Assembly (NCBI RefSeq): GCF_000009705.1
Contig: NC_003272.1
Coordinates: 4,170,001-4,202,000, forward strand
Length of the DNA: 32,000 bases
Origin: Nostoc sp. PCC 7120 = FACHB-418
Lineage (GTDB): Bacteria > Cyanobacteriota > Cyanobacteriia > Cyanobacteriales > Nostocaceae
Direction: 5' to 3'
Part shown: positions 6,422 through 28,742 of the stretch, piece by piece
Position numbering within the stretch: the stretch's first letter is position 1
How the letters are laid out: each line of letters starts with the position of its first letter
Notes under the pieces: model-generated
Told to the model about the DNA's origin: nothing
Database searches by the model: none
The model's input: the letters and a program-made list of their open reading frames with translations, nothing else
Position numbers and translations under genes: made by a program

Positions 6422-6461
6422 TTCTAGGTGTGACTACCATATCACATCTAGAATTTTTTTT
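6422..6461 (+). terminator. Rho-independent terminator of glmS
   Basis: A 12-bp stem TTCTAGGTGTGA / TCACATCTAGAA (one mismatch) with an 8-nt loop is followed by T8. Confidence 0.7.
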
Positions 6462-6531
6462 GGGCATCGCTTAAAGTAATGCTGTGTCTATCTCGCCAGA
6501 ACTGATTTGTCAGATGGTAATGTCAGGTTGT

Positions 6532-9891: not shown

Positions 9892-10278
9892 ATAATTGAT
9901 TTAAATGAATAAGTATAGATTCTACATTGATACTAATGATACTAGTATATCTACCATATTAGTTAAATCACTCGTGAGGGGTTAGATTAAAGTGTATTTT
10001 GTCAATGAGCTAAAATACTCAAATTTATCTAAATAAAAATGATAATCATGCGGTGGGGGAGGGGAAGGAGGCAAGACACTCGCCTCATTCCCCTATTTTT
10101 GATTATCATTATCAGCAAAATTCTTAGCAGGTAAAATATGGAACGAAAAAGTATTGTAACAACACAATAACTTGGGAAAAATTGAACCACATTTTTAGGT
10201 AAATTTACCCTAAACAGACCCAATTTTTTGTTCAAATATGGTACATGGGTACCATTGTATTAAGTATCTTATAAACAC

Positions 10279-10316
10279 AAAAAACCCTTGCAAGGGTCAA
10301 CTCACAAGGGTTTTAA
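10279..10316 (-). terminator. Hairpin plus T-run immediately 3' of the tRNA-Gly fragment (native tRNA terminator)
   Basis: On the minus strand, cccttgtgagttgaCCCTTGCAAGGGtttttt contains the palindrome ACCCTTGCAAGGGT (10284-10297) followed by T6. Confidence 0.45.
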
Positions 10317-10322
10317 GATGAA

Positions 10323-10368
10323 AGCGGGCGGCGGGAATCGAACCCGCATTAATAGCTTGGAAGGCTAT
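10323..10368 (-). tRNA. Truncated tRNA-Gly(UCC): only the 3' 46 nt (anticodon arm to discriminator); non-functional, probably an att-site remnant
   Basis: The minus strand reads ATAGC-CTTCCAA-GCTAT-TAAT-GCGGG-TTCGATT-CCCGC-CGCCCGC-T. That gives a perfect 5-bp anticodon stem, a loop with U33 and anticodon UCC, a canonical T-arm, the 3' acceptor strand and U73. The sequence 5' of it (..aaaggattttat) has no D-arm and no 5' acceptor strand. Confidence 0.8.
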
Positions 10369-10807
10369 ATAAAATCCTTTATTTACAACAGTTTCAGCTT
10401 ATTTTTACAATTTCTACACCCAATTTACACCCAACAGAACAATATTAAAATTTCCTGACTTTCAGATTTTTAATCAAGACTATTGATTGACAAAAGTAAA
10501 TCAATGTGTGTTTGAAATATTGAAGAAAATAGAATTGAATTTAAGTGATCGCCAACTTTCTCATTTTTAGCGATCGCGTGGTTCTACTACCCTATTACAA
10601 ATGGCGTTAATACAACAAATTGGAGATTTTTGTGACTGCCACCACCTACAGTGGGCGCTCTGCGCCATTGCTACCCATAAACCTTCAAACCGACAATCAG
10701 GTAATGCTTGAGAAAGTATAAAAGAAAACTTTTATATCTCAGATATCCCTTGTAATAGTATTGAAGCATTATTTAGCAAGATAGCTCTGTATTTTCGGGG
10801 TGTCGTG

Positions 10808-13800
10808 ATGAGCTTAATTAACCTGGATCTAGTTATCAGCGCAGTTACTAGCATTGCCAATCCTGTGATTAAAGAAAAAATTCTGCGTAGTGAGACAGTA
10901 ATTAAGTTACTCCAGCAATTTAACCTTGATCCAGAGCATCCACCTGCGGATTTTAGCGGTGTTTACGCCTACACCTTAGTCGAGTACGGTGTTGGCAAAC
11001 CAAAAGCATTTCTGGAATTATTTCGACAAGAGGCAATTAAACAGGCTTTTCGCAAAGCATTAGATCATAATAACCCCTCAATTCTGCTGTCTGAGGTTGA
11101 TACTTTTCTTGATGCTTGTACTTTGGGTGATGAAATCAGAAGCTTAGAACTGGACGTGAGAAGAGAGGTAGCTGCATTTGCGACTGTGTTTATTGAAGTC
11201 GCCAAACGCAGTCGCACACCTGCTGATGTCTTGATGAATCAACAGATTGGTTCTTTGCATAAAAGGATTGCTGGTATTCAAGAACAACTGGAGAGATTGC
11301 CTACACTGGAAGGAATTCGGACAGAAATAGCACGATTAGCAGCCCAGAATTATCCAGCATTAACCCCAACTGCCACTGAAAATCAATGTAGAGCGATCGC
11401 CTTAGCCCAACAAATGCGAGGTTGGTTTGAAACCTTGGGCTACCGCCTAGAAAAATATGAAATCTGGGCAGAAGAATATTTTGAATGGATTATCAACGTT
11501 CCCGTCCGCCGCAGTTATGACCGCATTCTTGTACGTGGCGTTGCGGGAGAAGTGAGACTGAGTGATGTTATGGCGTTGTGTCAATCAGTTAATCAACAAA
11601 AAACTGATGAAGGCTGGTTAGTAAGTACCCGTCGCATTTCCCGCGCAGCCAGGGATGAAGTCAAGAAAGAAGAAAATCGTCACCTTGACTGCTTTACATT
11701 TGACGAACTGATTGATTTAGATGCTGACTTTAGTGGTTATCTTGATTGGTTAGAAGCGGAAATCAAACGCCGCAAGATTGATCAAAAATATGTACCCCTT
11801 GCTTGTACTAAAGAAGAAATTGATCCAGTAACTAAAAGGCGAATTGGTATCAGCCGTTATGAAGCAGAAGACGGTTGGATTGATGGTTACATCGACCTTT
11901 GGCTGGATGACCCTGCTAAAGAACATATTTCTATTTTGGGAGAATTCGGTACAGGTAAAACTTGGTTTGTCTTTCACTATGCTTGGACAGCACTCCAACG
12001 TTACAAAGATGCTCAAAGACGTGGTGTTGAACGTCCCCGTTTACCTTTAGTAATTACCCTGCGTGACTTTGCCAAGGCTTTAAATGTAGAAAATGTTTTG
12101 GCGGGTTTCTTCTTTACTCAACACAATATCCGCTTAAATAGCGAAGTTTTTGACCAACTCAACCGGATGGGTAAATTGCTGCTCATTTTCGATGGTTTTG
12201 ACGAAATGGCAGCAAAAGTTGACCGCCAACAGATGATTAACAATTTTTGGGAACTGGCAAAGGTAGTAGTTCCTGGTTCTAAAGTTATCCTCACCTGCCG
12301 TACTGAACATTTCCCAGAAGCGAAAGAGGGACGTGCTTTACTCAATGCAGAATTGCAAGCCTCTACAAACAAACTAACCGGGGAAACACCACAATTTGAA
12401 GTTTTGGAACTGGAGAAATTCAACGATGAACAAATACGGCAGGTTTTGTTATACCAAGCTGAAGAAGCTACAGTTGAACAAATCATGGGTAATTCGCAGT
12501 TATTAGACTTAGCCCGTCGTCCTGTGATGACTGATTTAATCTTAGAAGCATTGCCAGATATTGAGGCCGGTAAACCTATTGATATGTCACGGGTTTATCT
12601 GTATGCAGTGCGGCACAAGATGGAACGAGATATCAAAGCAGAACGTACTTTTAATTCCTTGGCAGATAAATTGTACTTTTTATGCGAACTATCTTGGGAG
12701 ATGCTGTCTACTGACCAAATGAGTCTGAATTATCGCTTGTTCCCAGAACGTATTCGTCGCTTATTTGGTTCTGTTGTGCAAGAAGAGAAAGATTTAGATC
12801 ACTGGCATTATGACATGATGGCGCAGACAATGCTTGTCCGTAATGCTGACGGGGATTACACTCCTGCCCATAGGTCGCTGTTAGAGTTTTTTGTGGCGTA
12901 TAAATTTGCCGCAGAATTAGGAGCGTTAGCTAGGGATTTTACAGAAGTAGGTCAGGCACAGTCAGGTTTGGATAGTAGTACAGCATCTATTGACTATACT
13001 TGGTCTGGTTATTTTTCACGTCAGTTAGACTCTACTGGTTGTAGAGAAGTAATTGCACCACTAAGGCAATTTAAAAGTGAATTTCTGGATAAGTTGAGAG
13101 AAACTTTTGGTAAAGCAAAACTTACCAAAGCAGTGATAGATCTGTTGTTGCCAATGTTAGATGATAACGAGCCTCTTATTAAAATTATTGAGGCAACGCG
13201 AGGGAGAACTGAGGATGAAGTAAATTATGTTGGCGGAAATGCAGCTACGTTGCTAGTAAAGTTGAACAAGATGGTATTAGAGGGGAGAGACCTTTCTCAT
13301 ACTGTAATTATAGGTGCGGATTTTACTAATACCAGTTTGCGGTGTGTTAATTTTACAGAGGCGAATCTAGCTTATTCTGTTTTTACGAAAATCTTAGGTA
13401 GTGTTTTGACTGTAGCATTTAGTCCAGATGGTAAACTTTTTGCTACGGGCGATAGTGGGGGCATAGTTCGCTTTTGGGAAGCGGCTACTGGGAAAGAACT
13501 TTTGACTTGTAAAGGACACAACAGTTGGGTAAATTCTGTTGGCTTTAGTCAAGATGGAAAGATGCTTGCCAGTGGTAGTGACGACCAGACAGTACGGCTA
13601 TGGGATATCAGCAGTGGTCAATGCCTTAAGACATTTAAGGGTCACACCAGTAGAGTACGTTCTGTAGTGTTCAGTCCAAATAGTTTAATGCTGGCCAGTG
13701 GTAGTTCTGACCAGACAGTGCGACTATGGGATATCAGCAGTGGTGAATGCCTTTATATCTTTCAAGGTCACACTGGCTGGGTATATTCTGTGGCCTTCAA

Positions 13801-15385
13801 TTTAGATGGGTCAATGCTTGCTACTGGTAGTGGTGACCAAACAGTACGTTTATGGGATATCAGCAGTAGCCAATGCTTTTACATTTTTCAGGGACATACC
13901 AGTTGCGTACGTTCCGTAGTATTTAGTTCAGATGGAGCAATGCTTGCCAGTGGTAGTGACGACCAGACAGTACGGCTATGGGATATCAGTAGTGGCAACT
14001 GCCTTTACACTTTGCAGGGACACACTAGTTGCGTACGTTCAGTAGTATTTAGCCCAGATGGAGCGATGCTTGCCAGTGGTGGTGACGACCAGATCGTGCG
14101 CTTATGGGATATCAGCAGTGGCAACTGCCTTTACACTTTACAGGGATACACCAGTTGGGTACGTTTTTTAGTCTTCAGTCCAAATGGGGTGACGCTTGCC
14201 AATGGTAGTTCTGACCAAATAGTGCGATTATGGGATATTAGCAGTAAGAAATGCCTTTATACCTTACAAGGTCACACTAATTGGGTAAATGCCGTCGCCT
14301 TCAGCCCAGATGGGGCGACTCTTGCGAGTGGTAGTGGTGACCAAACAGTGCGGCTATGGGATATCAGCAGTAGCAAGTGCCTTTACATCTTGCAGGGTCA
14401 CACAAGTTGGGTAAATTCTGTCGTCTTCAATCCAGATGGATCAACGCTTGCAAGTGGCAGTTCTGACCAAACAGTGCGGCTATGGGAGATCAACAGTAGC
14501 AAATGCCTTTGCACCTTCCAGGGTCACACAAGTTGGGTAAATTCCGTCGTCTTTAATCCAGATGGGTCAATGCTTGCTAGTGGGAGTTCTGATAAAACAG
14601 TGCGGCTATGGGATATCAGCAGTAGCAAATGCCTTCACACCTTCCAGGGACACACCAATTGGGTAAATTCCGTCGCCTTTAATCCAGATGGGTCAATGCT
14701 TGCTAGTGGTAGTGGTGACCAAACAGTGCGGTTATGGGAGATTAGCAGTAGCAAATGCCTTCACACCTTCCAGGGACATACCAGTTGGGTGAGTTCTGTT
14801 ACCTTCAGTCCAGATGGAACAATGCTTGCCAGTGGTAGTGACGACCAGACAGTACGGCTATGGAGTATCAGTAGTGGTGAATGTCTTTATACTTTCTTGG
14901 GACATACTAATTGGGTAGGTTCCGTCATCTTTAGTCCAGATGGAGCAATACTTGCCAGTGGTAGTGGTGACCAAACAGTGCGCCTATGGAGTATCAGCAG
15001 TGGGAAATGCCTCTACACCTTGCAGGGTCACAATAATTGGGTAGGCTCCATTGTCTTTAGTCCAGATGGAACATTACTTGCCAGTGGTAGTGACGACCAA
15101 ACAGTGCGGCTATGGAATATTAGCAGTGGAGAATGCCTCTACACTTTGCATGGACACATCAATTCGGTACGTTCTGTAGCTTTTAGTTCAGATGGGTTAA
15201 TCCTTGCTAGCGGTAGCGATGATGAGACAATTAAGCTTTGGGATGTTAAGACGGGTGAGTGTATAAAAACTTTGAAAAGTGAAAAAATTTATGAGGGTAT
15301 GAATATTACTTCCGTTAGAGGTTTAACAGAAGTGGAGAAAGCTACTCTCAAAACACTAGGCGCAGTGGAAAACAGGGAAATATAA
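10808..15385 (+). CDS. STAND NTPase: N-terminal helical domain, degenerate Mrr-like restriction-endonuclease-fold region, NACHT, pentapeptide repeats and 15 WD40 repeats; NLR-like
   Basis: The ORF opens at GTG 10805, and ATG 10808 is the likelier start. The Walker A motif GEFGTGKTW is encoded around 11938-11965, and Walker B is [47 protein letters not shown] is pentapeptide-like. It is followed by 15 x 42-aa WD40 units ([28 protein letters not shown]) and the typical cyanobacterial tail YEGMNIT..GLT...LKTLGAVE. Confidence 0.9.
13400..15286. repeat. Tandem array of 15 x 126-bp units encoding the WD40 blades
   Basis: Direct reading shows long stretches shared between units (e.g. gaccaaacagtgcggctatgggatatcagcagtagcaa(a/g)tgcctt recurs). 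Differences cluster at a few codons per unit. Confidence 0.9.
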
Positions 15386-16152: not shown

Positions 16153-16404
16153 ATGTACAGCCTAGAAATCCCAGAAGGTCAAGCTGAATTTGCTGAACTA
16201 CTCCGTCGAGTGCGAGACGGAGAAGAAGTGATTATTTCTCAAGCAGGCACTCCTATCGCGCGTATAGTCCCAATTGCGGAACAGAAATTACCTCGAATTC
16301 CAGGTTTAGACCGTGGTCAGGTAACAATTTCCCCAGACTTTGATGCTCCCCTCCCCGACGAGGTGCTAAATGCTTTTATCAACCCAACAGACGCAGAAGC
16401 ATGA
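16153..16404 (+). CDS. Phd/YefM-family type II antitoxin
   Basis: 83 aa. It contains ..AEFAELLRRVRDGEEVIISQAGTPIARIVPI.. and a C-terminal DFDAPLPDEVLNAF motif. It overlaps the downstream PIN gene by 4 nt (ATGA). Confidence 0.8.
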   Translation: MYSLEIPEGQAEFAELLRRVRDGEEVIISQAGTPIARIVPIAEQKLPRIPGLDRGQVTISPDFDAPLPDEVLNAFINPTDAEA

Positions 16405-16787
16405 GAGCATTACTTGATACCCATACGTTTATTTGGTGGGTTATTGACGATAACCGACTCTCATCTACAGCTAGAAATATAATTGCTGACCCAGGGAATA
16501 ACTTATTTTTTAGTGCTGCAAGCGCATGGGAAATTGTAATTAAAGTTCGTTTGGGTAAATTAAATTTACCAGAACCACCAGAAACTTACATTCCCAATCG
16601 GTTGACTATAAATCGATTTGAAAGTTTGCCTATTCAAATGAATCACGCTTTACAAGTCGTTAATCTACCTGCTTTACATCAAGACCCTTTTGACCGAATA
16701 ATTATCGCTCAAAGTCAAGTGGAAAAAATGCCCATAATTACTGTAGATAATAAAATCACACAGTATCCTGTTGATGTAATTTGGTAG
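16401..16787 (+). CDS. vapC: PIN-domain toxin (VapC family)
   Basis: 128 aa. It has LLDTHTFIWW (first Asp), SAASAWEIVIK and DPFDRIIIAQ, and is translationally coupled to the antitoxin. Confidence 0.85.
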   Translation: MRALLDTHTFIWWVIDDNRLSSTARNIIADPGNNLFFSAASAWEIVIKVRLGKLNLPEPPETYIPNRLTINRFESLPIQMNHALQVVNLPALHQDPFDRIIIAQSQVEKMPIITVDNKITQYPVDVIW

Positions 16788-17145: not shown

Positions 17146-19311
17146 ATGATTCCACAAACTCTTGAAGAAGTCGTCTCAGATATTCTCAATCAATTTTTTC
17201 AGAACAAAGGTATAGGTGCTACTGCTACTTCTAGGAACACGTTACTTAAAATTATTTTAGAGTCTGCTGAAATTCCAGAGCCAGAAAGTACAACAGCACT
17301 CATTTTAGACGAAGTTTCTAGGTTAAAAACAACATCATGTAAAAAAATTAAGATACTTGCAAAGCAGAAAAATACTTTTGATGTTGCTTGGTGTCGAGCA
17401 TTTGATATCAAATCTCAGGCTGAACCTATAATAACTGAGCCAGAATTAGAAACAGAAAACCATAGCTCAAATCGGATATCTAATGATGAATTTCAGCAGG
17501 CTCTGGAAGAATCTACGAAGACTGCTAAGAATGCTTATCAAAAAACTTTCAATTACTATAAAGAAATCGAGGCAATTTTAAACAATCTTAACCTTGATTT
17601 AGATAAAAGCGTATTTCATTTATTAAAACAAAAAGATGCTAATAACTTCGACTTTGCACAGGTTTTGAAAAAAATAGCAGGTGAGATTGAAAGCCATGCT
17701 AGTGAAGGGCTTCAAGAACTAAAGAAATCCTTAGAAGCAAAAAGGCAACATTTAGCAGATTTTACGGTTGTTTTATTTGGTAGAACTAAAGCTGGAAAAA
17801 GTACTATTCGTGAAGCTTTAACCCGTGGCGATGGCAGTACAATTGGCACAGGTTCACAACGAACAACTAGAGATGTCAGAGAATATAAATGGAAAGGATT
17901 ACGCTTAATAGATACACCAGGCATTGAAGCTTATCAAGGAGACGAAGATAAACAAAAAGCTGTAGAAATCGTACATGAATCTGACATAGTTATCTTTCTT
18001 ACTAGTGATGACTCTGTTCAGCCCGGTGAATTTAATGCTATGGCTTGGCTGCAAGAAATCAAAAAATACTTTTTTGTAATTCTTAATATTAAGTATGATA
18101 TTGATAATCCAAAACGCCTGGAAAGGTTTATTAAAAATCCCGAAAAAATCTTTGATTCACAAAGGTTAGATGAACACAAACGTCATATTCGTAATTATAT
18201 TCATCACAGTTTAGGCATGGAAGAAGTAGCAATTATTTGTATTCATGCTTATGCAGCATTTCTAAGCAATCAGCCTCAATATAGTAATGTTGCTAATAAA
18301 CTTTGGGAATTAAGCCGGATAGAAGAAATTTATAGTTTAATCGTATCAGAAATCTACGCAAGAGGAAAACAAAGACGCTGGAATACCTTTTTTGATGCAA
18401 TCATATATTTCCTCGATGTAATCATAAAGATGTTAGAAAGGCATAAAGAATCTCTAGTGTCTCAGGCAGATTTTATGCAAGATAAGCGATCAGAGATTGA
18501 AGGTGTTTTTCAAGAGAGTGTTAAAAACGGAAAAATTAAAATTCAAAGATCATGTAAAAATTCATTTAGCAGAATCAAACAATGGATTCCTAACTTTGTT
18601 GATGAATATCTAGGGAAAGACATTGCTCAGTCTGAGTATCAAAAGCGTATGAATAAAGAAAAACAAAAAATTGAAACTGCTATGGAGAACTTATTTGAAG
18701 AGATAGTCCAGGAATTAGTGGCTGCTTTAAAGGAGTTTCAAAGGCAATATCAATATGATATGGGAACTATTAAATTAGAATCTACTGATTTTGGAAACTA
18801 TCAACAATGGCAAACTGGAAAAATTATGAAGTGGGTAGGTGTTGGGTTAAGTACAACCTCTGCTGTTGCTTTTGGTATCGGTGCTTTTGCAGCAGCTAAT
18901 TTTTGGAATCCTGTAGGATGGATAGCTGGTGTGACATCTATCGTCGTTGGAATTGTCAGTTGGTTCTTTGGTGAGCAAGATAAAAAATTATGGCAAAAAG
19001 CTAAACAAGAAGCTAAAGAAAATCTTTGGAAGAGCTTGGATCAATCAGAGCAAGAAACTTGCAAAAATTACCAAAAATTACTAGATACAAATATTGCTGT
19101 TAGGGCTAAAACTGAAGTGCTGGAACAGGTGGATATTTATATTAAAGGAATTCTAATCATTGTGGATGATATAAAAAAAGCAATTTCACAACTTGAGAAA
19201 ATCAAAAAAGAAATGAAGCGAGAGTCAGATTATACAGGAGTAAGGGATAGATTGCCAAATCCAAGAAATTTCAAGGGTAATTCGTCAGTTATAGCTGATG
19301 AATTATTGTAG
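17146..19311 (+). CDS. Dynamin-like / TRAFAC-class GTPase with a C-terminal transmembrane hairpin ('paddle'), 721 aa
   Basis: The G1 motif FGRTKAGKST is encoded around 17779-17805. G3 is LIDTPG and the G4-like motif is LNIKYD. There are long helical regions and the hydrophobic hairpin WVGVGLSTTSAVAFGIGAFAAANFWNPVGWIAGVTSIVVGIVSWFF (around 18832-18972), followed by a helical tail. This is the domain order of BDLP/DynA/LeoA-type proteins. Confidence 0.8.
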   Translation: MIPQTLEEVVSDILNQFFQNKGIGATATSRNTLLKIILESAEIPEPESTTALILDEVSRLKTTSCKKIKILAKQKNTFDVAWCRAFDIKSQAEPIITEPELETENHSSNRISNDEFQQALEESTKTAKNAYQKTFNYYKEIEAILNNLNLDLDKSVFHLLKQKDANNFDFAQVLKKIAGEIESHASEGLQELKKSLEAKRQHLADFTVVLFGRTKAGKSTIREALTRGDGSTIGTGSQRTTRDVREYKWKGLRLIDTPGIEAYQGDEDKQKAVEIVHESDIVIFLTSDDSVQPGEFNAMAWLQEIKKYFFVILNIKYDIDNPKRLERFIKNPEKIFDSQRLDEHKRHIRNYIHHSLGMEEVAIICIHAYAAFLSNQPQYSNVANKLWELSRIEEIYSLIVSEIYARGKQRRWNTFFDAIIYFLDVIIKMLERHKESLVSQADFMQDKRSEIEGVFQESVKNGKIKIQRSCKNSFSRIKQWIPNFVDEYLGKDIAQSEYQKRMNKEKQKIETAMENLFEEIVQELVAALKEFQRQYQYDMGTIKLESTDFGNYQQWQTGKIMKWVGVGLSTTSAVAFGIGAFAAANFWNPVGWIAGVTSIVVGIVSWFFGEQDKKLWQKAKQEAKENLWKSLDQSEQETCKNYQKLLDTNIAVRAKTEVLEQVDIYIKGILIIVDDIKKAISQLEKIKKEMKRESDYTGVRDRLPNPRNFKGNSSVIADELL

Positions 19312-19384
19312 TTATTTGTCTTGTCTTTAAATCACACTTAAGTGTTTGCATATTTTTTTTAGAAAGCAGTAGAGGTAGTGAGAA

Positions 19385-21058
19385 ATGTCTGAAATGAAAT
19401 TTAAGCAAGTTGCTAAACAAGTAGAAGATGTATGTTCTGAAAGTTTGAGAATATTATCTTCATCTACCGATAGTGAGATAGATGTATTTGCAAGAGATTT
19501 TGAAATTTTCATTCATGAATATCAACAAAAAGCACAATTAACTATTGCCTTTGTTGGTCAATATAATGCGGGTAAGTCTACTTTGATTAAAGCTCTTACG
19601 GGCGATACATCTGTCCGAATCAGTGCTGAAATTTGTACAGATAGGATTACTGAATATCTCTGGAAAGAAGTTATTCTAATTGATACCCCAGGAATTTATG
19701 CAGGTAGAACAGATCACGATCAAATCACTCTAGAACAAATTTCAAAAAGTGATTTACTCATCTTTGTTGTTCCCAACGAATTATTTAACCCTCAAGGCGG
19801 AGATTTTTTTAAAAGAGTTGCCAATGAAATGCAGCGAGTTGGTCAAATGCTCTTAGTAGTTAATAAAATGAGTCGTGAACGCGGTAAGCCAGAAGATTTG
19901 CTTAAAAGCCTTTTGGAAGTTGTAGAGCCTCATCACCCTAATGATTTTCATACTTGTTTTATTGATGCTGATTCTTATTTTAATACTCAGTGTGAAAAAG
20001 ATGAAGATGAAAAAGAATTTTTACTCGAAGAAGCTAATTTTGATGCTTTCCTGACATCGTTACATAAATTAATCGATAAGAATAAATTCTATGCAAGACT
20101 GTTAACACCTCTCAACCGTGCCTTAGATATATTAGAACGGTCTTACAATATTTTGAGTACAGATAATAAATCCGCTAGAGATTTCTTAGAACTACTCCAT
20201 CGGAAAATGTTACTTATTAAGACATCTCAAATAAGATTTAGAAATTGTTATATAGCTGAATTTAACAATCTTGAACACGGAATATTAATGATTGGCGAAG
20301 GTGTTGCTAGTAAAGTTGACGGGAGACATAGCGAAAAAGATATTAACTTGACAATTAAAAAAGCCGAGAAAGAAATAGAATCAACTACAAAGCAAACAAT
20401 AGAGAAAATACAGTTGGGCTTGGAAGAGGAATTAAGTAAACTTCAAATTCAACTCGAACAATTATTACAATCAAGGTTGGGTCGCTCTTTAGTCGAAGAA
20501 GTGCAAGTTTCATCAACAGGTAAAAAACAAGTTGATTATGAAGAAGTTGAGAAAACTCCAGAAATACCATCCTTTTTAAGAAAAAGTCCTGAAACTGTAC
20601 GGGCTATAGGAAATTTTGCGTCGGCAGTTTCTAGAGACCTAGTTTATAACGTCGGTAAATTTTTTGGTGTAAAATTTCGTCCTTGGGGAGCAGTGAACGG
20701 GGCTAAATTCATCAGAGGTTTAGGGCCTATTATTGGAGGTGTTGGTCTAATTCTAGAAATTTTTCTTAATGCTAAACAGGAACAGGATGAAGCAGAATAT
20801 GAGCAGAAACTCCGGGAAGCAAGATCAGATTTACGCCAGAGTTTTCGACAATTAGCTTCAGAAATTAGAAGTGAATATGAAGAGAATATTAAAAGTGAGA
20901 TTATTTCTGGCTTTTATGAATCTGAACTTCAAGATGTTGAACGTCAGCGAGATGAATTGCGAAATGATGAAGGTTCAAAAATTGAAATAGTTAATCGAAT
21001 CAAACATATAATCCAAAAAATTAAGAAGCAAATAGTCACAATAGAAAATAATGCTTAA
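19385..21058 (+). CDS. Dynamin-like GTPase, second member of the pair, 557 aa
   Basis: The G1 motif VGQYNAGKSTLIKALTG is encoded around 19556-19582. G3 is LIDTPG and the G4-like motif is VVNKMS. It has a helical stalk, the hydrophobic segment GLGPIIGGVGLILEIFL and a charged coiled-coil tail. It lies 73 bp downstream of the first GTPase and has a GAGG-type RBS. Confidence 0.8.
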   Translation: MSEMKFKQVAKQVEDVCSESLRILSSSTDSEIDVFARDFEIFIHEYQQKAQLTIAFVGQYNAGKSTLIKALTGDTSVRISAEICTDRITEYLWKEVILIDTPGIYAGRTDHDQITLEQISKSDLLIFVVPNELFNPQGGDFFKRVANEMQRVGQMLLVVNKMSRERGKPEDLLKSLLEVVEPHHPNDFHTCFIDADSYFNTQCEKDEDEKEFLLEEANFDAFLTSLHKLIDKNKFYARLLTPLNRALDILERSYNILSTDNKSARDFLELLHRKMLLIKTSQIRFRNCYIAEFNNLEHGILMIGEGVASKVDGRHSEKDINLTIKKAEKEIESTTKQTIEKIQLGLEEELSKLQIQLEQLLQSRLGRSLVEEVQVSSTGKKQVDYEEVEKTPEIPSFLRKSPETVRAIGNFASAVSRDLVYNVGKFFGVKFRPWGAVNGAKFIRGLGPIIGGVGLILEIFLNAKQEQDEAEYEQKLREARSDLRQSFRQLASEIRSEYEENIKSEIISGFYESELQDVERQRDELRNDEGSKIEIVNRIKHIIQKIKKQIVTIENNA

Positions 21059-21203
21059 TTAAAGTTATATAGTGGTTTGCTGAATGCGATAAGACTCTAT
21101 ACTGGCATAGTTTGTCAGTTCAATGGGGAGGCGATCGCCCATTAGTATACAGTGGCAGCAGCTAGCTAAACCAACGCATCTATCAACAATATTAGTAGCT
21201 AAT

Positions 21204-21234
21204 TTGACATCGAGAGGTTGATATATAGCATAAT
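21204..21234 (+). promoter_or_regulatory. Candidate sigma70-type promoter for the hsd operon
   Basis: TTGACA at 21204-21209 is followed 16-19 nt later by TAGCATAAT. It lies about 80 nt upstream of the hsdR ATG. This is a pattern match only. Confidence 0.3.
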
Positions 21235-21315
21235 ACAAGTTAAATACCTAACATTCTCTACGGTAGGCTATGTAATTTCACTGCTTATACTCCTCAACTC
21301 TCAATCGACCCTTTT

Positions 21316-23646
21316 ATGTCAGAAGCAATTGACAAGAAATCTTTGAGCGAACGTGATATCTGTACAAAGTACATTACGCCTGCTCTAGTTAATCGCGGCT
21401 GGAATATCAACACTCAGATTCGTGAGGAAGTGACGCTGACAAAAGGTAGGGTGATTGTTAGGGGTAAGCTTACTAGTCGAGGTGAGCAGAAACGCGCTGA
21501 TTATGTGCTGTATCACAAACCCGGTGTACCACTGGCTGTAATTGAAGCTAAAGATAATAATCACTCGGTCAGTGCGGGAATGCAACAGGCGATCGCAACT
21601 GGTGAACTAATTGATGTACCATTCATCTTTAGCTCGAATGGCGACGCTTTTATGATGTGTGACTGTACAGTCACCGACGGACAGCGAGAACGGGAAATCC
21701 CCCTTGACCAGTTCCCAACACCGGAGAAACTTTGGCAAAAATACTGTGATTGGAAGGGAATTGACACCGACATTCAGCCAATTGTTTCTCAAGATTACTA
21801 TCCCAGTCCTGATAAAAAACAGCCACGCTATTATCAACAGATTGCCATTAACCGGACAATTGAGGCGATCGCGAAAGGAGAAAACCGCATTCTGTTAGTG
21901 ATGGCGACGGGTACGGGTAAGACTTTTACAGCTTTTCAGATTATCTGGCGGTTGTGGAAGTCAGGGGCGAAAAAGCGTATCCTGTTCTTGGCAGACCGCA
22001 ACATTTTGGTTGATCAAACTAGAGTCAATGACTTTAAACCCTTTGGCTCAAAAATGACCAAAATTAAGCAGCGACAGATAGATACATCTTACGAGATTTA
22101 TCTATGTCTGTATCAGGCGGTAACGGGAAATGAAGAGGCGAAAAACATTTATCGGCAGTTTTCACCAGGTTTTTTTGACTTAATTATTATAGATGAGTGC
22201 CATCGGGGAAGCGCGTCTGAAGATTCGGCATGGCGAGATATTTTGGCATATTTTAGCAGTGCAACGCAGATTGGCTTGACTGCTACCCCAAGGGAAACAG
22301 AAGAAGTTTCTAATAGTCTTTATTTTGGCGATTCAATTTTTACCTATTCGCTCAAACAAGGGATTGAAGATGGCTTTTTAGCTCCCTATAAAGTTATTCG
22401 CATTGACTTTGATACAGATTTGAGTGGCTGGAAACCGAAGCCAGGACAAAGAGATAAATATGGTAAAGAAATTCCTGACCAAGTATTTAATCAGCGAGAT
22501 TTTGATAGAACTCTGGTTTTAGAGAAGCGTACCGAGTTAGTCGCGCGGATTATTTCTGATTATCTCAAATCAAGCGATCGCTTTGCCAAAACTATCGTTT
22601 TTTGTGAGACGACTGACCACGCAGAACGGATGCGGGTGGCGTTGGTGAATGAGAATGCTGATTTGATGGCGGAGAATAGCCGCTACATTATGCGAATTAC
22701 TGGGGATGATGCTCAGGGTAAAGCAGAATTAGATAATTTCATTGACCCTGAAAGTAAATATCCTACGATTGTTACTACCTCTGAGTTACTGACGACTGGC
22801 GTTGATGCTAAAACTTGCAAGTTGATTGTTTTAGACCAGCGCATCCTGTCTATGACTAAATTTAAGCAAATTGTTGGTCGCGGTACGCGCATTGATGAAG
22901 ACTATGGCAAAATGTTCTTCACCATTATCGATTTTAAGAAAGCAACACAGTTATTTGCTGACCCTGAGTTTGATGGTGAACCTGTACAAATTTATCAGCC
23001 CAAACCAGTTGATCCAATTGTTCCACCCGATAATGGAGACGATGAGGTAATCATTGATGGTGAGATTACCCGCAAGCAAAAGCGGGAGAAGTATGTAATT
23101 GCAGACGAAGAGGTGTCTGTTGCTTTTATTCGTGAGCAGTACCACGGTAAGGACGGTAAGCTGATTACGGAATCGATTAAAGACTATACTCGCAAAACAG
23201 TTAGTCAGGAGTACGCCTCATTAGATGCTTTCTTGAAGAAATGGCACTCTACCGAACAAAAGCAGGCTATTATCCAAGAGCTACAGGAATTGGGTGTACC
23301 TTTGGAAGCGTTAGAAAAAGAGATTGGCAAGGGTTTTGACCCATTAGACTTGATTTGTCATGTTGTCTTTGACCAACCGCCACTAACACGGAAAGAAAGG
23401 GCGAACAATGTCCGCAAGCGTAATTATTTTAGCAAGTATAGTGAACAGGCTCGTAAGGTAATAGATGCGCTTTTGGATAAATATGCGGATGAAGGGATTG
23501 AAGATATTGAAAAATTGGATGTGCTGAAGGTTCATCCTTTTGATAAAGTGGGTACACCAATAGAAATTATTCAGCTTTTTGGCAGTAGAAAAGAATATCT
23601 TAATGTACTTCAGCAGCTAAAAACGCAACTTTATGAGATAGCCTAG
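21316..23646 (+). CDS. hsdR: Type I restriction enzyme R subunit (EcoEI-like C-terminal domain)
   Basis: 776 aa. The N-terminal PD-(D/E)xK nuclease region reads ADYVLY...AVIEAKD. The SF2 motor has VMATGTGKT, and IIDECH is encoded at 22192-22203. There are also TATPRE and helicase C motifs (TTGVD, QIVGRGTR). The C-terminal block ..KYADEGIEDIEKLDVLKVHPF.. is typical of the EcoEI R C-terminal domain. Confidence 0.95.
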   Translation: MSEAIDKKSLSERDICTKYITPALVNRGWNINTQIREEVTLTKGRVIVRGKLTSRGEQKRADYVLYHKPGVPLAVIEAKDNNHSVSAGMQQAIATGELIDVPFIFSSNGDAFMMCDCTVTDGQREREIPLDQFPTPEKLWQKYCDWKGIDTDIQPIVSQDYYPSPDKKQPRYYQQIAINRTIEAIAKGENRILLVMATGTGKTFTAFQIIWRLWKSGAKKRILFLADRNILVDQTRVNDFKPFGSKMTKIKQRQIDTSYEIYLCLYQAVTGNEEAKNIYRQFSPGFFDLIIIDECHRGSASEDSAWRDILAYFSSATQIGLTATPRETEEVSNSLYFGDSIFTYSLKQGIEDGFLAPYKVIRIDFDTDLSGWKPKPGQRDKYGKEIPDQVFNQRDFDRTLVLEKRTELVARIISDYLKSSDRFAKTIVFCETTDHAERMRVALVNENADLMAENSRYIMRITGDDAQGKAELDNFIDPESKYPTIVTTSELLTTGVDAKTCKLIVLDQRILSMTKFKQIVGRGTRIDEDYGKMFFTIIDFKKATQLFADPEFDGEPVQIYQPKPVDPIVPPDNGDDEVIIDGEITRKQKREKYVIADEEVSVAFIREQYHGKDGKLITESIKDYTRKTVSQEYASLDAFLKKWHSTEQKQAIIQELQELGVPLEALEKEIGKGFDPLDLICHVVFDQPPLTRKERANNVRKRNYFSKYSEQARKVIDALLDKYADEGIEDIEKLDVLKVHPFDKVGTPIEIIQLFGSRKEYLNVLQQLKTQLYEIA

Positions 23647-23671
23647 TTAATCATCTTTAAATTTGTTTTGT

Positions 23672-24664
23672 ATGGACGATCCAATAAAATACATTGACTC
23701 ATCTATTAAAGGTTTACAGGATAAACTATCTACATCTAATTCGGTGTTAGATATTGAAGTACAGGCAGAACTTTCTCATATTTTATCTATCTACCGACGA
23801 TTAAAAACTGCTTTTTTAATTGCCAAGGTTCAAGATAACAAAAATAAGCTAGAACATATTGAAGCAATAGCGCCTAATCTTAATTTGGCAATTTCTGCAT
23901 TACAAGTAAATTCTAACAAGGTTTTGGCAAGGAACATTAGGCGAGATGCAGAATACTTCATACGGAGAATTGAAAATCCTGTCACTGCATTTTTCGTGAA
24001 TAATTTCTTTAAATTTCTTTATTCTACAGAAACTCATACAAAAGTAGTTATCGGTCTGTTTTTAGCTTTACCTATTCATCTATTAGCACCGATTGTTTTA
24101 GCATATATACTTAGTACATCCAATCTTTATTTAAAACCTTTATTTAAAGAACAATTAACAAAGCCCATATCTTCAGAAAATTTAGTAGAAGCACAAAAGC
24201 CAGAAGTAAAAACTCAAATAAAGTTGACAGAATATGAGTTTTATGAGGCATCCGTGCTGCTGGTATTATCAGCAATGTCAGGAGCGACTGGTAGTGTTGT
24301 AAGTATTATGTTGAGGCTGGATCAATATGGCAATCCACGGTATAAAGAAACCTTACTTCCTATATTTGTGGGAGCATTCAAGCCAGCAATTGGGGCATTT
24401 TTAGGGATTTTTGTTTTTGCTCTCATCAATTCTACACTTCTGCCTATTACAATTTCTAAAGATGAGGAAAAGCCAATTAATAGATGGTTGGCGTTTTTAG
24501 CAATTACTTTTGTTGTGGGCTTTAGTGAAAGACTAGCAAATGATGTTGTTAGTCAAGCAGAAAGAATTGTACCAGGGAGAGGTGCTTCACAGGAAAAAAG
24601 CGAAACTTCTGCATCACAATTATCTGCACCTACAGAAGAAGATAAAGAAAACGATAAAAGTTAA
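23672..24664 (+). CDS. Hypothetical multi-pass membrane protein (helical N-terminal domain plus about 4 TM segments) inserted between hsdR and hsdM
   Basis: The ORF opens at TTG 23663, and ATG 23672 is the likelier start. The hydrophobic segments are VVIGLFLALPIHLLAPIVLAYIL, ASVLLVLSAMSGATGSVVSIML, LLPIFVGAFKPAIGAFLGIFVFALI and WLAFLAITFVVGF, followed by an acidic/Ser-rich tail. It lies 25 nt after the hsdR stop and ends 7 nt before the hsdM start. Confidence 0.7.
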   Translation: MDDPIKYIDSSIKGLQDKLSTSNSVLDIEVQAELSHILSIYRRLKTAFLIAKVQDNKNKLEHIEAIAPNLNLAISALQVNSNKVLARNIRRDAEYFIRRIENPVTAFFVNNFFKFLYSTETHTKVVIGLFLALPIHLLAPIVLAYILSTSNLYLKPLFKEQLTKPISSENLVEAQKPEVKTQIKLTEYEFYEASVLLVLSAMSGATGSVVSIMLRLDQYGNPRYKETLLPIFVGAFKPAIGAFLGIFVFALINSTLLPITISKDEEKPINRWLAFLAITFVVGFSERLANDVVSQAERIVPGRGASQEKSETSASQLSAPTEEDKENDKS

Positions 24665-24671
24665 GTAAGCA

Positions 24672-26114
24672 ATGTCAATTAGCACTACAATTAAGACTAT
24701 TCAAGATATCATGCGGAAAGATGCGGGCGTTGATGGTGACGCGCAACGCATTAACCAGTTAGTTTGGATGATATTCCTCAAGGTTTTTGATGCCCGTGAA
24801 GAAGAATATGAACTGTTAGAAGATAATTATAAATCTCCCATTCCTGAAGGTTTGCGTTGGCGGAACTGGGCAGCAGATTCCGAAGGTATCACAGGAGATG
24901 GTTTACTAGATTTTGTAGATAATGCTTTATTTAAAACCCTTAAAGAACTAAGAACTACGGCAACTGATGCCCGTGGGCAGATGATTGGTAAAGTGTTTGA
25001 GGATGCCTACAACTATATGAAAAATGGCACTCTCATCCGCCAAGTAATTAATAAGCTCAATGAAGTTGATTTTAATAAAAAAGACCAGAAAAAACAGTTT
25101 AGCGAAATTTACGAGAAAATTCTCAAAGATTTGCAGAGTGCGGGAAATGCCGGAGAATATTATACTCCCCGTGCGGTGACAAAGTTTATTGTAGATAGAA
25201 TCAAGCCGCAATTAGGGGAAATTGTATTTGATCCAGCTTGCGGTACAGGTGGCTTTTTAACAGCAGCAATTGATTACATTCGCCAACATTTTCAAAGTGC
25301 TGATGTACCAGAAATTCTGCAACGGACGATTCGCGGAACTGAGAAAAAGCCGTTACCTTTTAACCTTTGTGTCACGAATCTGATTTTAAATGGTATTGAT
25401 GTGCCGTCAGCAGAACATGATAATACTTTGGCACGACCATTGCGCGATTACAGTCCTCACGAACGGGTGGATGTAATTATCACTAATCCGCCTTTTGGTG
25501 GGATGGAAGAAGATGGAATTGAGGACAATTTCCCAGCTACCTTCCGCACCAGAGAAACGGCAGATTTATTTCTGGTGCTGATTGCTCATTTACTCAAGGA
25601 AGGCGGTAGAGGTGCAATAGTTTTACCAGATGGTACGCTGTTTGGCGAAGGTGTAAAAACGCGGATTAAAGAAAAACTCCTGCAAGATTGCAATCTGCAT
25701 ACAATTGTGCGCTTACCAAATGGCGTATTTAATCCCTACACAGGTATTAAAACTAATCTGCTATTTTTCACTAAAGGGGAACCCACAGAAACGATTTGGT
25801 ATTATGAACACCCTTACCCAGCAGGTTATAAGTCATACTCGAAAACTAAGCCGATTCGCTTTGAGGAGTTTGCACCGGAGCAAGAATGGTGGGATAACCG
25901 CGAGGAAAATGAATTTGCTTGGAAAGTTTCAATTGCAGATTTGAAGGCGAATAATTACAACCTAGATATTAAAAATCCTCACAAAGTTGATGTAGAACAC
26001 GCTGATTTAGATGAAATGTTAGCAGATCATCAAAAACTTATGGCTGAATTGGGTGAGGTGCGGAGTAAGTTGAAATTTGAATTAATGGAAGCGTTGGAAA
26101 GAGATGAAGCTTGA
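24672..26114 (+). CDS. hsdM: Type I R-M system N6-adenine DNA methyltransferase subunit
   Basis: 480 aa. It has an HsdM N-terminal domain (IMRKDAGVDGDAQRINQLVWMIFLK), the AdoMet motif I DPACGTGGFL, and motif IV IITNPPFGG encoded at 25485-25499. Confidence 0.95.
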   Translation: MSISTTIKTIQDIMRKDAGVDGDAQRINQLVWMIFLKVFDAREEEYELLEDNYKSPIPEGLRWRNWAADSEGITGDGLLDFVDNALFKTLKELRTTATDARGQMIGKVFEDAYNYMKNGTLIRQVINKLNEVDFNKKDQKKQFSEIYEKILKDLQSAGNAGEYYTPRAVTKFIVDRIKPQLGEIVFDPACGTGGFLTAAIDYIRQHFQSADVPEILQRTIRGTEKKPLPFNLCVTNLILNGIDVPSAEHDNTLARPLRDYSPHERVDVIITNPPFGGMEEDGIEDNFPATFRTRETADLFLVLIAHLLKEGGRGAIVLPDGTLFGEGVKTRIKEKLLQDCNLHTIVRLPNGVFNPYTGIKTNLLFFTKGEPTETIWYYEHPYPAGYKSYSKTKPIRFEEFAPEQEWWDNREENEFAWKVSIADLKANNYNLDIKNPHKVDVEHADLDEMLADHQKLMAELGEVRSKLKFELMEALERDEA

Positions 26115-27731
26115 AAGTTTTTTTGATAATTTTGAATTGTTAACTGATGCGCCAAATGCGAGCGCAAAGCTGCGGGATTTGATTTTGCAATTGGCTGTTA
26201 AAGGTAAGCTAGTTAATCAAGATTTAAATGATGAATCAGCCTCAATTCTTTTGGAGAATGTCCAAGCTCAAAAAGAAAAAATAACTGGTGGGCGAAAAAT
26301 TGAAAAAGAAAATTTTTTGTTAGAAATTGAAGAGAAAGAATATTTTTATAATATACCTCCAAAATGGATATATACAAGATTAGAAAATATTAGCTTTTTT
26401 TAGGAGGATATGCTTTTAAAAGTAATTCCTACGTACAATACTCAAATAACCAAATAATAAGACTAGGAAATGTAAAAAATGACGAAATACTTTTGAATCA
26501 GAATCCAGTTTTTATAACAGATGAGGTTGCTAGTGAGAGCGATAAATTTTTAATTCATGAGAATGATATTCTCATAACTATGACTGGGACAAAGAATAAA
26601 AGAGATTTTTGTTTTACTGCCATAGTAGATGCAACTCACATTGCTGAAAAGAAGCTTTACTTAAATCAAAGAGTTGGCTGTATAAGAATAATTAAACCAG
26701 TTTATAACCAATTAGTTAACATTTTTTTGAAATCTCCCATAATTGTAGATTATCTACTATCATCTGCAACTGGAACTGCAAATCAAGCCAATATAGGAGC
26801 CAATACTCTACGGGAACTCCCATTCCCTCTTCCACCCCTTGCAGAACAAAAACGCATTGTAGAGAAGTGCGATCGCCTGCTTTCCATCTGCGACGAAATC
26901 GAAAAACGGCACCAGCAAAGGCAAGAGAGCATTGTGAGGATGAATGAGAGTGCGATCGCTCAACTCCTCTCATCCCAAAATCCCGACGATTTCCGCCAAC
27001 ACTGGCAGCGCATTTGCAATAATTTTGACTTACTCTACAGCATTCCTGAAACTATTCCTAAACTGCGTCAGGCGATTTTGCAATTGGCTGTGCAGGGTAA
27101 ACTAACTAATCAAAGTAGTAAAGAAATCAAAAAAATATCAGATACTCACAAAGTATCTGATTATGTCAGCATCTTAAATGGTTATGCGTTCAAAAGCACT
27201 TGGTTTATCAATGATGGGATTCGTCTTTTGCGGAATGCAAACGTTGGTCATGGTGATTTAAGATGGGACGATGTAGCCACAATATCTGAAGAAAGAGCGC
27301 AAGAATTTCAAAGATTCAAGCTAGATATAGATGATATAGTTATATCCCTTGATCGTCCTATCATTTCAACCGGATTAAAAGTTGCAAGAATTACTAAGAA
27401 TGACCTTCCATGCCTTCTTTTACAGCGTGTTGGAAAATTCGAGTTTAAAACCGATAAAGTTATCCCTGATTTTTTCTTCCTGTGGCTACAGTCTCCAATT
27501 TTCATAAATGCGATAGATCCAGGCAGAAGTAATGGAGTACCACATATTTCATCCAAAAGTATAGAAGCGATTCTCTTCAATCCTCCTTCCAGAGAAGAAC
27601 AAAAACGGATTGTAGAGAAGTGCGATCGCCTGATGTCTCTCTGTGATACCCTAGAAGCCAAACTAAAACAAGGGCGAGACAGCAGCGAGAAACTGATGGA
27701 AGTTGCAGCAAAACAGGTTTTAACAGTCTAA
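26104..27731 (+). pseudogene. hsdS: Type I R-M specificity subunit, interrupted by a frameshift in a T7 tract (ORFs 26104..26403 and 26493..27731)
   Basis: The first ORF carries the N-terminal conserved helix (LRDLILQLAVKGKL) and the start of TRD1, and stops at ..ENISFF*. The frame offset by one nt continues from 26400 as LGGYAFKSNSYVQYSNNQIIRLGNVKNDE.., which parallels TRD2 (ILNGYAFKSTWFINDGIRLLRNANVGHGD). The central and C-terminal conserved regions (EQKRIVEKCDRL x2) are present. The start overlaps hsdM by 11 nt. Confidence 0.85.
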
Positions 27732-27743
27732 TAGCCATTTTCC

Positions 27744-27805
27744 GTAGGGACGGGTTTAAAAATCTGCTCGATTATTAATGATGATCTTGGTGAACCCGCC
27801 CCTAC
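27744..27805. repeat. Small palindromic dispersed repeat, copy 1 (GTAGGGACGGGTTTA ... TGAACCCGCCCCTAC)
   Basis: About 15-bp inverted arms flank a roughly 32-nt centre, 13 nt after the hsdS stop. Related copies lie at 28680 and 29988. Confidence 0.75.
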
Positions 27806-27875
27806 AAACGGCGTTTAGGCTTACGATAAGGCAAAATTAAGATATTAGCCCTGACATTTAACAGTCAAGCCAACC

Positions 27876-28145
27876 ATGACCTCAATCAAAGCAAAACTCA
27901 TCGAAGCGATCGAAACAGTACCAGATTCGATTTTAGAGCAAACCCTTGATTATCTCGAATATCTCAAAACCAAAGAACAGAAACCTCAGACTTTATCTCA
28001 AGAAATTCCTCAAAAAGAGGGAGAGCCGATTTTGCGTGGTTCTAAAGCCAAAGATTTACTCAAGTTTGCAAAAACATGGCAGGGAGACGACTTCGAGGAA
28101 TGCCTTCAGCTTGTTTATGACACCCGTTCCCAAGCAGAGTTCTAA
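27876..28145 (+). CDS. Putative type II antitoxin partnered with the downstream PIN toxin
   Basis: 89 aa. Its stop overlaps the ATG of the PIN gene by 1 nt (TAATG). N-terminal MTSIKAKLIEAIETVPDSILEQTLDYLEYLK is typical of small cyanobacterial antitoxins. The assignment rests mainly on position and coupling. Confidence 0.65.
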   Translation: MTSIKAKLIEAIETVPDSILEQTLDYLEYLKTKEQKPQTLSQEIPQKEGEPILRGSKAKDLLKFAKTWQGDDFEECLQLVYDTRSQAEF

Positions 28146-28594
28146 TGTATTTGCTTGATACCAATCATTGTAGCCGCATCATCTTTGGTGATTCTAACCT
28201 GATCCAACAACTACAGCTTAATAGCGAAGCAGGAATTGCTACCAGCGTTGTAGTATGTGGAGAACTCCTATACATGGCAGCAAAATCTGATCGCAGTGTT
28301 GCCAATCTTCAGCAGGTCAGAGTATTTTTAGACACAATCGATATTTATCCCGTCAATTTCTCAATTTCTGAGGTTTATGGCAATCTCAAAGGCAAGTTGG
28401 TGAATGCTTTCGGGCCTAAAGAAAAAGCCCAGCGACGAAATTTCAACCTGCAAGCCCTTGGTTTTGGAGATAATGACCTCTGGATCGCAGCCACAGCAAT
28501 TCACTATAATCTCACTGTAGTTTCCACAGACAATGATTTTCGACGGATTCAGCAAGTAGAAACTTTGCTTTTGGAATCTTGGCTTGCCAGTTAA
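28145..28594 (+). CDS. vapC: PIN-domain toxin (VapC family)
   Basis: 149 aa. The four acidic PIN positions are recognisable: YLLDTNH, CGELLYMA, GDNDLWIAATA and VSTDNDF. Confidence 0.85.
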   Translation: MYLLDTNHCSRIIFGDSNLIQQLQLNSEAGIATSVVVCGELLYMAAKSDRSVANLQQVRVFLDTIDIYPVNFSISEVYGNLKGKLVNAFGPKEKAQRRNFNLQALGFGDNDLWIAATAIHYNLTVVSTDNDFRRIQQVETLLLESWLAS

Positions 28595-28679
28595 TTTACT
28601 TAGAAAAATTACTAATTTGTATTAGATAATCGCACTCTCATAACTGAAAAGCGATCGCCCATGATGGATTCCAGAGGTT

Positions 28680-28742
28680 GTATGGGCGGGTTTACAGATA
28701 TGATTCAATCATTCACCACTATCTTGGTTAACCCGCCCCTAC
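28680..28742. repeat. Small palindromic dispersed repeat, copy 2 (GTATGGGCGGGTTTA ... GTTAACCCGCCCCTAC)
   Basis: It has the same architecture and terminal sequence as copy 1, and sits in the vapC/RHH intergenic region between two HIP1 sites. Confidence 0.75.

Follow-up and report, generated by a model that had tools for sequence, protein, structure and literature searches.

A predicted membrane protein gene embedded in a type IB-like restriction-modification operon of Nostoc sp. PCC 7120 is a candidate for an autonomous defence gene

Published work on guilt-by-embedding shows that genes nested within type I restriction-modification (R-M), BREX, DISARM, and Hma systems serve defence in most cases and are able to work on their own; for PrrC, an almost exclusive occurrence in type I R-M loci is reported (bioRxiv 10.1101/2024.01.29.577857). 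A gene in such a position, designated here as X, was found in Nostoc sp. PCC 7120 on contig NC_003272.1, within positions 4,170,001 to 4,202,000 of the forward strand. This whole stretch of 32,000 nucleotides (nt) was analysed and is called the window, and its positions are counted from its first letter. X has the core genes of a multi-gene defence system on both sides, all in one orientation, and on this ground it may be regarded as a reasonable guilt-by-embedding defence candidate. The published pattern is the best prior to be had for X, although X matches none of the published candidates. Candidate defence genes inside R-M operons are a known kind; the family of X is new and unannotated. 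Comparison of related loci indicates that X is autonomous of the R-M genes that surround it. The reading preferred here, tentatively and with a confidence that stays somewhat short of even, is that X encodes an autonomous defence or conflict membrane effector, carried as cargo at the hsdR/hsdM junction of a type IB-like operon in filamentous cyanobacteria.

The operon has the following parts in the window, with protein lengths in amino acids (aa):
21316..23646, + strand: hsdR, 776 aa, EcoAI/EcoEI-type (Pfam ResIII, HSDR_N, EcoEI_R_C; PADLOC REase_I, E=0)
23510..23646, + strand: last ~110–140 bp of hsdR, kept as a relic upstream of solo X (DNA alignment, nhmmer, tblastn)
23672..24664, + strand: gene X, 330-aa membrane protein, between hsdR and hsdM (open reading frame; homologue-aligned start; 32 close homologues; ratio of nonsynonymous to synonymous substitution rates, dN/dS, 0.17–0.27)
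24672..26114, + strand: hsdM, 480 aa (N6_Mtase 2e-73, HsdM_N)
26104..27731, + strand: hsdS, in two frames, 26104–26403 and ~26404–27731 (Methylase_S; tblastn with the 544-aa HsdS of the related contig L024)

The reading frame of X starts with ATG at 23672, has an in-frame TTG at 23663, and ends at 24664 on the + strand; the 330 aa are counted from the ATG. The stop codon of hsdR is at 23646 and is followed by 25 nt before X, and X is followed by 7 nt before the start of hsdM at 24672, with all three genes on the same strand. The spacing reported in a first-pass annotation of this DNA is thus confirmed, as is its description of X as a gene additional to the type I hsd operon that holds it, since Pfam and PADLOC identify the flanking products as HsdR, HsdM, and HsdS. 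The same annotation held that X must be co-transcribed with the restriction genes. Co-transcription is plausible, but the word "must" goes too far. In a promoter and terminator scan of 21000–28700 the site counts equalled the shuffle expectation, and nothing convincing was seen at either X junction. The source name of HsdR is "EcoAI/FtnUII family", and the restriction system is therefore called type IB-like. The exact X protein is BAB75173.1 of Nostoc sp. PCC 7120. Alignment of the 32 homologues shows conservation of their first residues (MDD/MED) and of the 20 that follow, which is why the ATG at 23672 is favoured as the start. The RefSeq form of the protein, WP_231865474.1, has 306 aa and begins at an internal GTG (V25; 23744); judged by this alignment, it appears too short.

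A word-indexed search gave 32 close homologues of X, and the minority of them that are named by organism are all cyanobacterial (Anabaena/Nostoc, Calothrix, Scytolyngbya, and Stenomitos). The close clade is patchy: a pattern-based scan covering 185,579 species genomes met it at nine loci. The order hsdR-X-hsdM is intact in two further operons, one on a metagenome contig (L024) and the other in Stenomitos frigidus. The proteins of L024 are 91.5% (HsdR), 92% (X), and 97.5% (HsdM) identical to those of the window, and its HsdS is intact with 544 aa. In Stenomitos frigidus, HsdR, X, and HsdM are 67%, 50%, and 77% identical, respectively, and MNT/HepT is inserted between hsdM and hsdS. The spacer between X and hsdM is 7 nt in the window, 7 nt in L024, and 3 nt in Stenomitos.

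Three solo copies of X retain remains of the operon. The closest solo copy, 86% identical, is in Calothrix NIES-2098 between ndhL/trpA and NUDIX/zwf. Directly upstream of it is a frameshifted hsdR 3' end of ~115–140 bp, with stop codon and spacer as in the operon, and the region of the hsdM start codon is just downstream. In Nostoc sp. NMS8, the final 32 hsdR codons stand before solo X and the initial 65 hsdM codons after it, with an insertion sequence (IS) transposase adjoining. On a plasmid-like metagenome contig (L019; KfrA, AAA_22, YdjM, DUF87/TrwB), the last 34 codons of hsdR precede solo X. The relics were recognized by nhmmer with E from 4e-23 to 4e-25, and by tblastn as HsdR residues 743/745–776. 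The survey of homologues proposed in the first-pass annotation thus found that embedding does recur, in L024, Stenomitos, and the three relic-flanked solo copies. In a bootstrapped neighbour-joining tree, hsd-linked X genes fall into two separate clades of the close family with bootstrap values of 100 and 99; for this reason embedding is most simply taken as ancestral in the close family, and the solo copies as derived.

No hsd relic was found beside the solo copies of an uncultured cyanobacterial metagenome-assembled genome, of Scytolyngbya, or beside the copy adjoining chlB, nor at solo X of Fischerella, Nostochopsis, and Crinalium or at a 463-aa relative on a 373-kb contig. Some solo copies adjoin chlB or ATP sulfurylase; elsewhere X is accompanied by a HigB/HigA-like pair, STAND-WD40 genes, a caspase gene, or genes of plasmid type. 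In Nostochopsis and Fischerella muscicola (L011 5658–7850; L012 5602–7794), X is directly 3' of a gene for a 730-aa caspase (Peptidase_C14)-DUF4384 protein on the same strand, and an XPB-type helicase is on the other side. On another contig (L023 1144–2485), an X homologue truncated to 206 aa, matching from X residue 121, lies beside a Gp49/HTH_37 (HigB/HigA-like) pair; it apparently lost its N-domain through insertion or rearrangement.

The dN/dS of X is 0.21 between the window and Calothrix, 0.17 between L024 and Calothrix, and 0.27 between the two embedded copies. The values for HsdR (0.10) and HsdM (0.06) are lower, those of X being two to four times higher. X thus persists intact under purifying selection after hsdR and hsdM are lost. 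HsdM at least 90% identical to that of the window was found in Scytonema, Richelia, Hassallia, and other Nostoc genomes, and none of these taxa is present among the organism-named X homologues in the list of 32. X is likely absent from those operons. A related type IB-like operon is on Pseudanabaena plasmid pPg_02 (L049), with HsdR 63% and HsdM 60% identical. Its hsdR/hsdM junction holds IS1380 and a PIN toxin-antitoxin (TA) pair, and its hsdM/hsdS junction an RNA-binding protein, Uma2, and Phd/YoeB. The junction cargo of the related operons is located as follows:
L006 (Stenomitos) 12522–13008: MNT/HepT
L049 (pPg_02) 4751–6916 and 8453–11080: IS1380, TA genes, and others

As the pPg_02 and Stenomitos operons carry other cargo there, hsd junctions are regarded as general cargo sites. 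Four points together argue that X is not tied to the R-M genes: solo X is under selection, no named homologue comes from the genera that share HsdM, other cargo occupies the junction, and hsdS of the window is frameshifted.

Two independent losses of hsdR, one in Calothrix and the other in the common ancestor of NMS8 and L019, end within ~10–15 codons of each other (HsdR residues ~735–745). In type IA and IB loci, hsdM-hsdS is transcribed from its own promoter, separate from that of hsdR. Because the relic boundaries recur and the hsdM-hsdS promoter is a separate one in these types, the promoter of X-hsdM-hsdS is tentatively placed in the last ~100 bp of hsdR, and only deletions that spare it would leave a working X.

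The hsdS of the window changes frame at a T7 run at 26395–26401; the HsdS of L024 aligns in frame 3 to ~26400 and then in frame 2. The split may mean that hsdS is a pseudogene or that the tract is phase-variable, or it may stem from a sequencing error; if it is real, the R-M system has no full specificity subunit. The first target-recognition domain of HsdS (window 26104–26500 against L024 6161–6550) is only ~42% identical, while the rest of HsdS is 72–79% identical, which suggests that this domain was swapped between near-identical operons (HsdM 97.5% identical). A MerR-family regulator gene is located just 5' of hsdR in L024 (745–1251) and in Stenomitos (L006 6896–7384) and may regulate the hsd operon; the window has Eleos genes at this place.

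Nostoc sp. PCC 7120, NIES-23, and FACHB-709 each have an identical 330-aa X under two accessions per genome. The second X of PCC 7120 is BAB75318.1, identical at the protein level, and the next accession in order is a 484-aa HsdM (BAB75319.1, 99% identical to that of the window). No HsdR paralogue of at least 90% identity was found in PCC 7120. The two copies of X-hsdM point to a recent duplication or gene conversion of this unit.

The G+C (GC) content of X is 33.8%, and at third codon positions (GC3) it is 21.8%, compared with 42.1% and 39.9% for hsdR and 40.4% and 33.9% for hsdM. X was described in the first-pass annotation as AT-rich against hsdM, and the values of 33.8% versus 40.4% bear this out; the difference is stronger at third codon positions. 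The deficit is present in every host examined, including Stenomitos, where X has 45% GC versus 51–54%. Because it recurs in all hosts and operons, low GC is a property of the X gene itself and not a sign of recent arrival. The HIP1 octamer (GCGATCGC) occurs 23 times in the 32-kb window, and the earlier counts of three sites in hsdR, none in X, and three in hsdS were reproduced. It is also missing from hsdM and from both Eleos genes (3.9 kb). At the window-wide density (23 per 32 kb), a gene of 993 nt should hold only about 0.7 sites, and that X has none therefore carries no weight. The view of X as a separately acquired cassette is weak, and neither HIP1 nor GC was accepted as a sign of recent foreign origin. 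A site-specific insertion element or mobile cassette was rejected too, as no direct or inverted repeats of note flank X and no duplicate of the hsdR 3' end is present downstream. In tblastn searches of phage and plasmid collections X was absent, and for these sets recognisable phage or plasmid cargo was likewise rejected.

An AlphaFold2 (AF2) model of X was built on the 32-sequence alignment, with a mean predicted local distance difference test score (pLDDT) of 73.7 and a predicted template modelling score of 0.61. The model is all helical, and the protein is divided as follows, TM standing for transmembrane:
23672..24025, + strand: residues 1–118, soluble five-helix N-domain (AF2 helices 4–21, 28–53, 57–79, 83–101, 103–118; pLDDT ~90)
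24032..24145, + strand: residues 121–158, TM1 (AF2 helix; hydropathy maximum 2.55)
24146..24229, + strand: residues 159–186, disordered variable linker, predicted periplasmic (pLDDT <50 at 161–182)
24230..24568, + strand: residues 187–299, conserved 3-TM module (profile hits at ~190–305; invariant columns)
24569..24664, + strand: residues 300–330 and stop, acidic/Ser-rich disordered tail (pLDDT ~30; charge count; disordered 302–330)

Three strong hydrophobic stretches are seen in the hydropathy profile (121–153, 192–216, and 227–263), and a fourth membrane helix comes from the AF2 helix beginning at 269. X is accordingly modelled with four predicted TM helices, arranged one plus three. A helical soluble N-domain, about four hydrophobic segments, and an acidic/Ser-rich tail had been noticed already in the first-pass annotation, and AF2 and hydropathy agree with it. 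The N-domain has a conserved E33 and a motif around N82/L85/R91 in the homologue alignments, and a K/R-rich stretch stands just ahead of TM1. In TM1, residues T121, K124, V125, G128, L129, L133, and P134 are invariant in the close family; the linker varies in length and sequence among homologues. By the positive-inside rule, the N-domain, the 214–228 loop, and the C-terminus would be cytoplasmic. The 3-TM module (AF2 helices 187–214, 229–253, and 269–299) is the part common to the whole X superfamily. Invariant across distant relatives are G204, G207, S211, R215, G234, P238, F280, G283-F-S-E-R287, and E297, and nearly invariant are K237, G241, and D291. The pattern of the module can be written as G..GS..S...R / G..KP..G / GFSER.

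As the related loci show, X entered the hsdR/hsdM junction before its close family radiated, has since travelled with the operon, and has repeatedly stayed intact where hsdR and hsdM decayed. According to the preferred reading, it would be transcribed with hsdM-hsdS from a promoter within the final ~100 bp of hsdR, and the protein would serve alone in defence or conflict as an effector at the cytoplasmic membrane, in which the N-domain may sense a trigger or hold the protein closed. The 3-TM modules may oligomerise into an ion-conducting or membrane-perturbing assembly, and this assembly would abort infection or block phage DNA entry. X would thus complement restriction, as TgvAB or BrxU do, and would not need the restriction enzyme.

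A bolder version is that X founds a new single-gene membrane anti-phage family with a helical sensor and a YLATT-like 3-TM "GFSER" pore, widely distributed inside and outside the cyanobacteria, of which one lineage became hard-wired as the first gene of a type IB hsdM-hsdS unit; in its boldest form, X would in addition sense what state the R-M complex is in. We consider this version unlikely. If it were true, each cell that makes the methyltransferase would also carry a second barrier at the membrane level.

X and its operon are part of an island of ~22 kb in the window, which comprises two NACHT STAND NTPases, PIN genes, Eleos, the type I R-M system, and a PIN TA pair. The genes fmt, DUF6683, and glmS precede it. 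The other members of the island are:
6532–9891, − strand: NNH2-NACHT-HEAT repeat protein, 1119 aa (Pfam/PADLOC)
10805–15385, + strand: NNH5 (NACHT N-terminal helical) with many WD40 repeats, 1526 aa (Pfam/PADLOC)
16401–16787: lone PIN gene (domain call)
17146..21058, + strand: Eleos (dynamin-like) leoBC and leoA (PADLOC LeoBC 1e-108, LeoA 4e-112)
27876..28594, + strand: DUF2281-like antitoxin and PIN toxin, 3' of hsdS (Pfam)

The NNH proteins are very large repeat proteins of the kind described for conflict systems of multicellular bacteria. The Eleos genes are directly 5' of hsdR on the same strand, and with 33.7% and 33.6% GC and GC3 of 21–23% they are AT-rich like X.

When 1.84 billion cluster representatives were searched exhaustively with a profile, 1676 proteins related to X were recognized at E<=1e-3, of which 630 reach <=1e-10 and 93 reach <=1e-30, each representing a cluster at 50% identity. 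Many of the matches have 240–300 aa and a plan like that of X (helical N-domain, TM1, 3-TM module); others consist of the 3-TM module only. Some of the named sources are outside cyanobacteria, in Polyangiales and Burkholderiales. A search with the 3-TM module only added 185 further short unannotated proteins, none of them with a precomputed Pfam domain. Among the relatives of X, YLATT (PF20303) was the sole recurrent Pfam family, matched by 6 of 140 at E<=0.01 (best E 4.7e-4), and the matches span profile positions 4–97 of 107, exactly over the GFSER module. This similarity is a lead for distant homology and not membership. Weak scattered matches to ZorA came from a single distant relative only. 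The superfamily is large and unnamed, with no Pfam family or solved structure. In the literature searched, no paper describing YLATT was found, and nothing was found for the PCC 7120 locus tags of this locus.

Several points weigh against X being a defence effector. No link of X to any proven defence protein was found, either experimental or by homology. Nothing significant was returned for X by Pfam, NCBIfam, PADLOC (5027 models, including the embedded-candidate PDCs), or PHROG; the PADLOC scan gave only a chance-level Cas5 match (E 0.0022), and no PDC/HEC profile of PADLOC-DB v2 was matched. The sequence search of PDB found no relative, and Foldseek of the model against PDB and BFVD found no fold match (best E 0.098 and 0.22). 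Profile and Foldseek searches, of the kind that the first-pass annotation had suggested for the N-terminal domain, thus placed X in no family or fold. All YLATT matches are below threshold, the best relative scoring 20.4 bits against a gathering value of 26.7, and X itself has no match. The placement of the promoter, the topology, and the pore mechanism are what we infer, and the simple promoter scan neither supports nor excludes a promoter in the hsdR 3' end. At 17 distant superfamily loci and four stand-alone 3-TM genes, no type I R-M system was nearby and no neighbour was recurrent. Around them, genes of metabolism or transport predominate, Uma2, GIY-YIG, transposase, and integrase genes are scattered, and the superfamily as a whole is not visibly defence-linked. 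Location of X in a conflict island is also weak evidence, as conflict genes are abundant in filamentous cyanobacteria.

Another explanation, which we hold to be possible if on the whole doubtful, is that X is a non-defence membrane protein (e.g., for stress, ion homeostasis, or the envelope) that was fixed once at a permissive junction and has been hitch-hiking with hsd or mobile DNA. The superfamily is large (1676) and mostly outside defence contexts, beside ordinary genes, and the solo copies by ndhL/trpA-NUDIX/zwf, chlB, and ATP sulfurylase would agree with this, while purifying selection shows usefulness only and not purpose. However, the close clade is patchy and accessory-like, and its linkage with hsd genes, TA pairs, IS elements, and plasmid-type genes is repeated. 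The GC3 of X is atypically low in every host examined, and PCC 7120 has two identical X genes, each next to hsdM (the second by accession order).

In the first-pass annotation X was seen as a PrrC-like second-line effector that HsdR/M/S physically holds latent and that depolarises the membrane once the enzyme is blocked by an anti-restriction protein of a phage. The tight spacing of X and hsdM (7, 7, and 3 nt), kept although the X proteins are only 50% identical, and the ancestral embedding of the close family would be in line with such coupling. The loci of relatives, however, make it quite improbable. PrrC is almost exclusive to type I R-M loci and X is not; in at least three lineages X has stayed intact and under selection although hsdR and hsdM were lost (dN/dS 0.17–0.21 for Calothrix), and several solo copies stand with no hsd trace at all. 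A toxic effector silenced by the complex should not outlast it. Furthermore, no X homologue was recovered, among those named, from genera with HsdM at least 90% identical, hsdS is frameshifted in the window, and the survey of the wider superfamily met neither hsd neighbours nor a recurrent partner. Finally, X as an accessory R-M subunit, e.g., a membrane anchor or a regulator by which the type I enzyme is positioned or controlled, is very improbable: its location 3–7 nt ahead of hsdM suggests coupled expression, and membrane association of type I enzymes has been reported, but X survives solo, is apparently absent from genera with HsdM at least 90% identical, belongs to a wider superfamily with no hsd link, and has a dN/dS two to four times that of HsdR and HsdM.

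If X is a defence gene, an unannotated superfamily of 1676 clusters at 50% identity would obtain a name and a function, and a membrane-acting type would join the catalogue of R-M-embedded genes, which are so far mostly nucleases and ATPases. The host, Nostoc/Anabaena PCC 7120, is a genetically tractable model in which few defence systems have been tested. A passenger X that outlives its host operon and still has the hsdR relic beside it is a marker for past R-M loci, and the same pattern is a caution against equating "embedded" with "functionally coupled".

Among described systems, PrrC in the EcoprrI type IC hsd locus resembles X as an extra same-strand gene embedded in a type I hsd operon. 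It differs in being a soluble ATPase-nuclease that needs the R-M complex for latency, whereas X is a predicted 4-TM protein in which Pfam, NCBIfam, and PADLOC found no ABC-ATPase or anticodon nuclease domain. PrrC is also near-exclusive to hsd loci, while X commonly occurs and survives outside them, and X is located between hsdR and hsdM of a type IB-like system. The TA-type cargo (MNT/HepT, IS1380/PIN, Uma2, Phd/YoeB) occupies, like X, the hsdR/hsdM or hsdM/hsdS junctions of type IB-like operons, but belongs to known TA or mobile families, in contrast to a single membrane protein of an unnamed family. YLATT (PF20303, "YEATS-Like-Associating Three TM") is a three-TM module of ~107 residues comparable with X residues 187–299; no YEATS-like family was among the top neighbour families or called neighbours of X relatives, for which no dedicated search was made. 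TgvAB of Vibrio cholerae VPI-2, BrxU, and the HEC/PDC genes of Payne et al. are same-orientation cargo as X is, probably co-regulated and able to work independently (PMC11411939; bioRxiv 10.1101/2024.01.29.577857). They are mostly GmrSD-like nucleases, ABC ATPases, and RNases with shown anti-phage activity, whereas X is a membrane protein with no PADLOC match and only a candidate for such activity. From RexB, Kiwa KwaA, Zorya ZorA, and the TM effectors of CBASS and retrons, X differs in having no PADLOC similarity and in being a single gene with no conserved partner; like them, it is a predicted multi-pass protein with no enzymatic domain, encoded in a defence locus, with arrest or exclusion at the membrane level as the proposed action.

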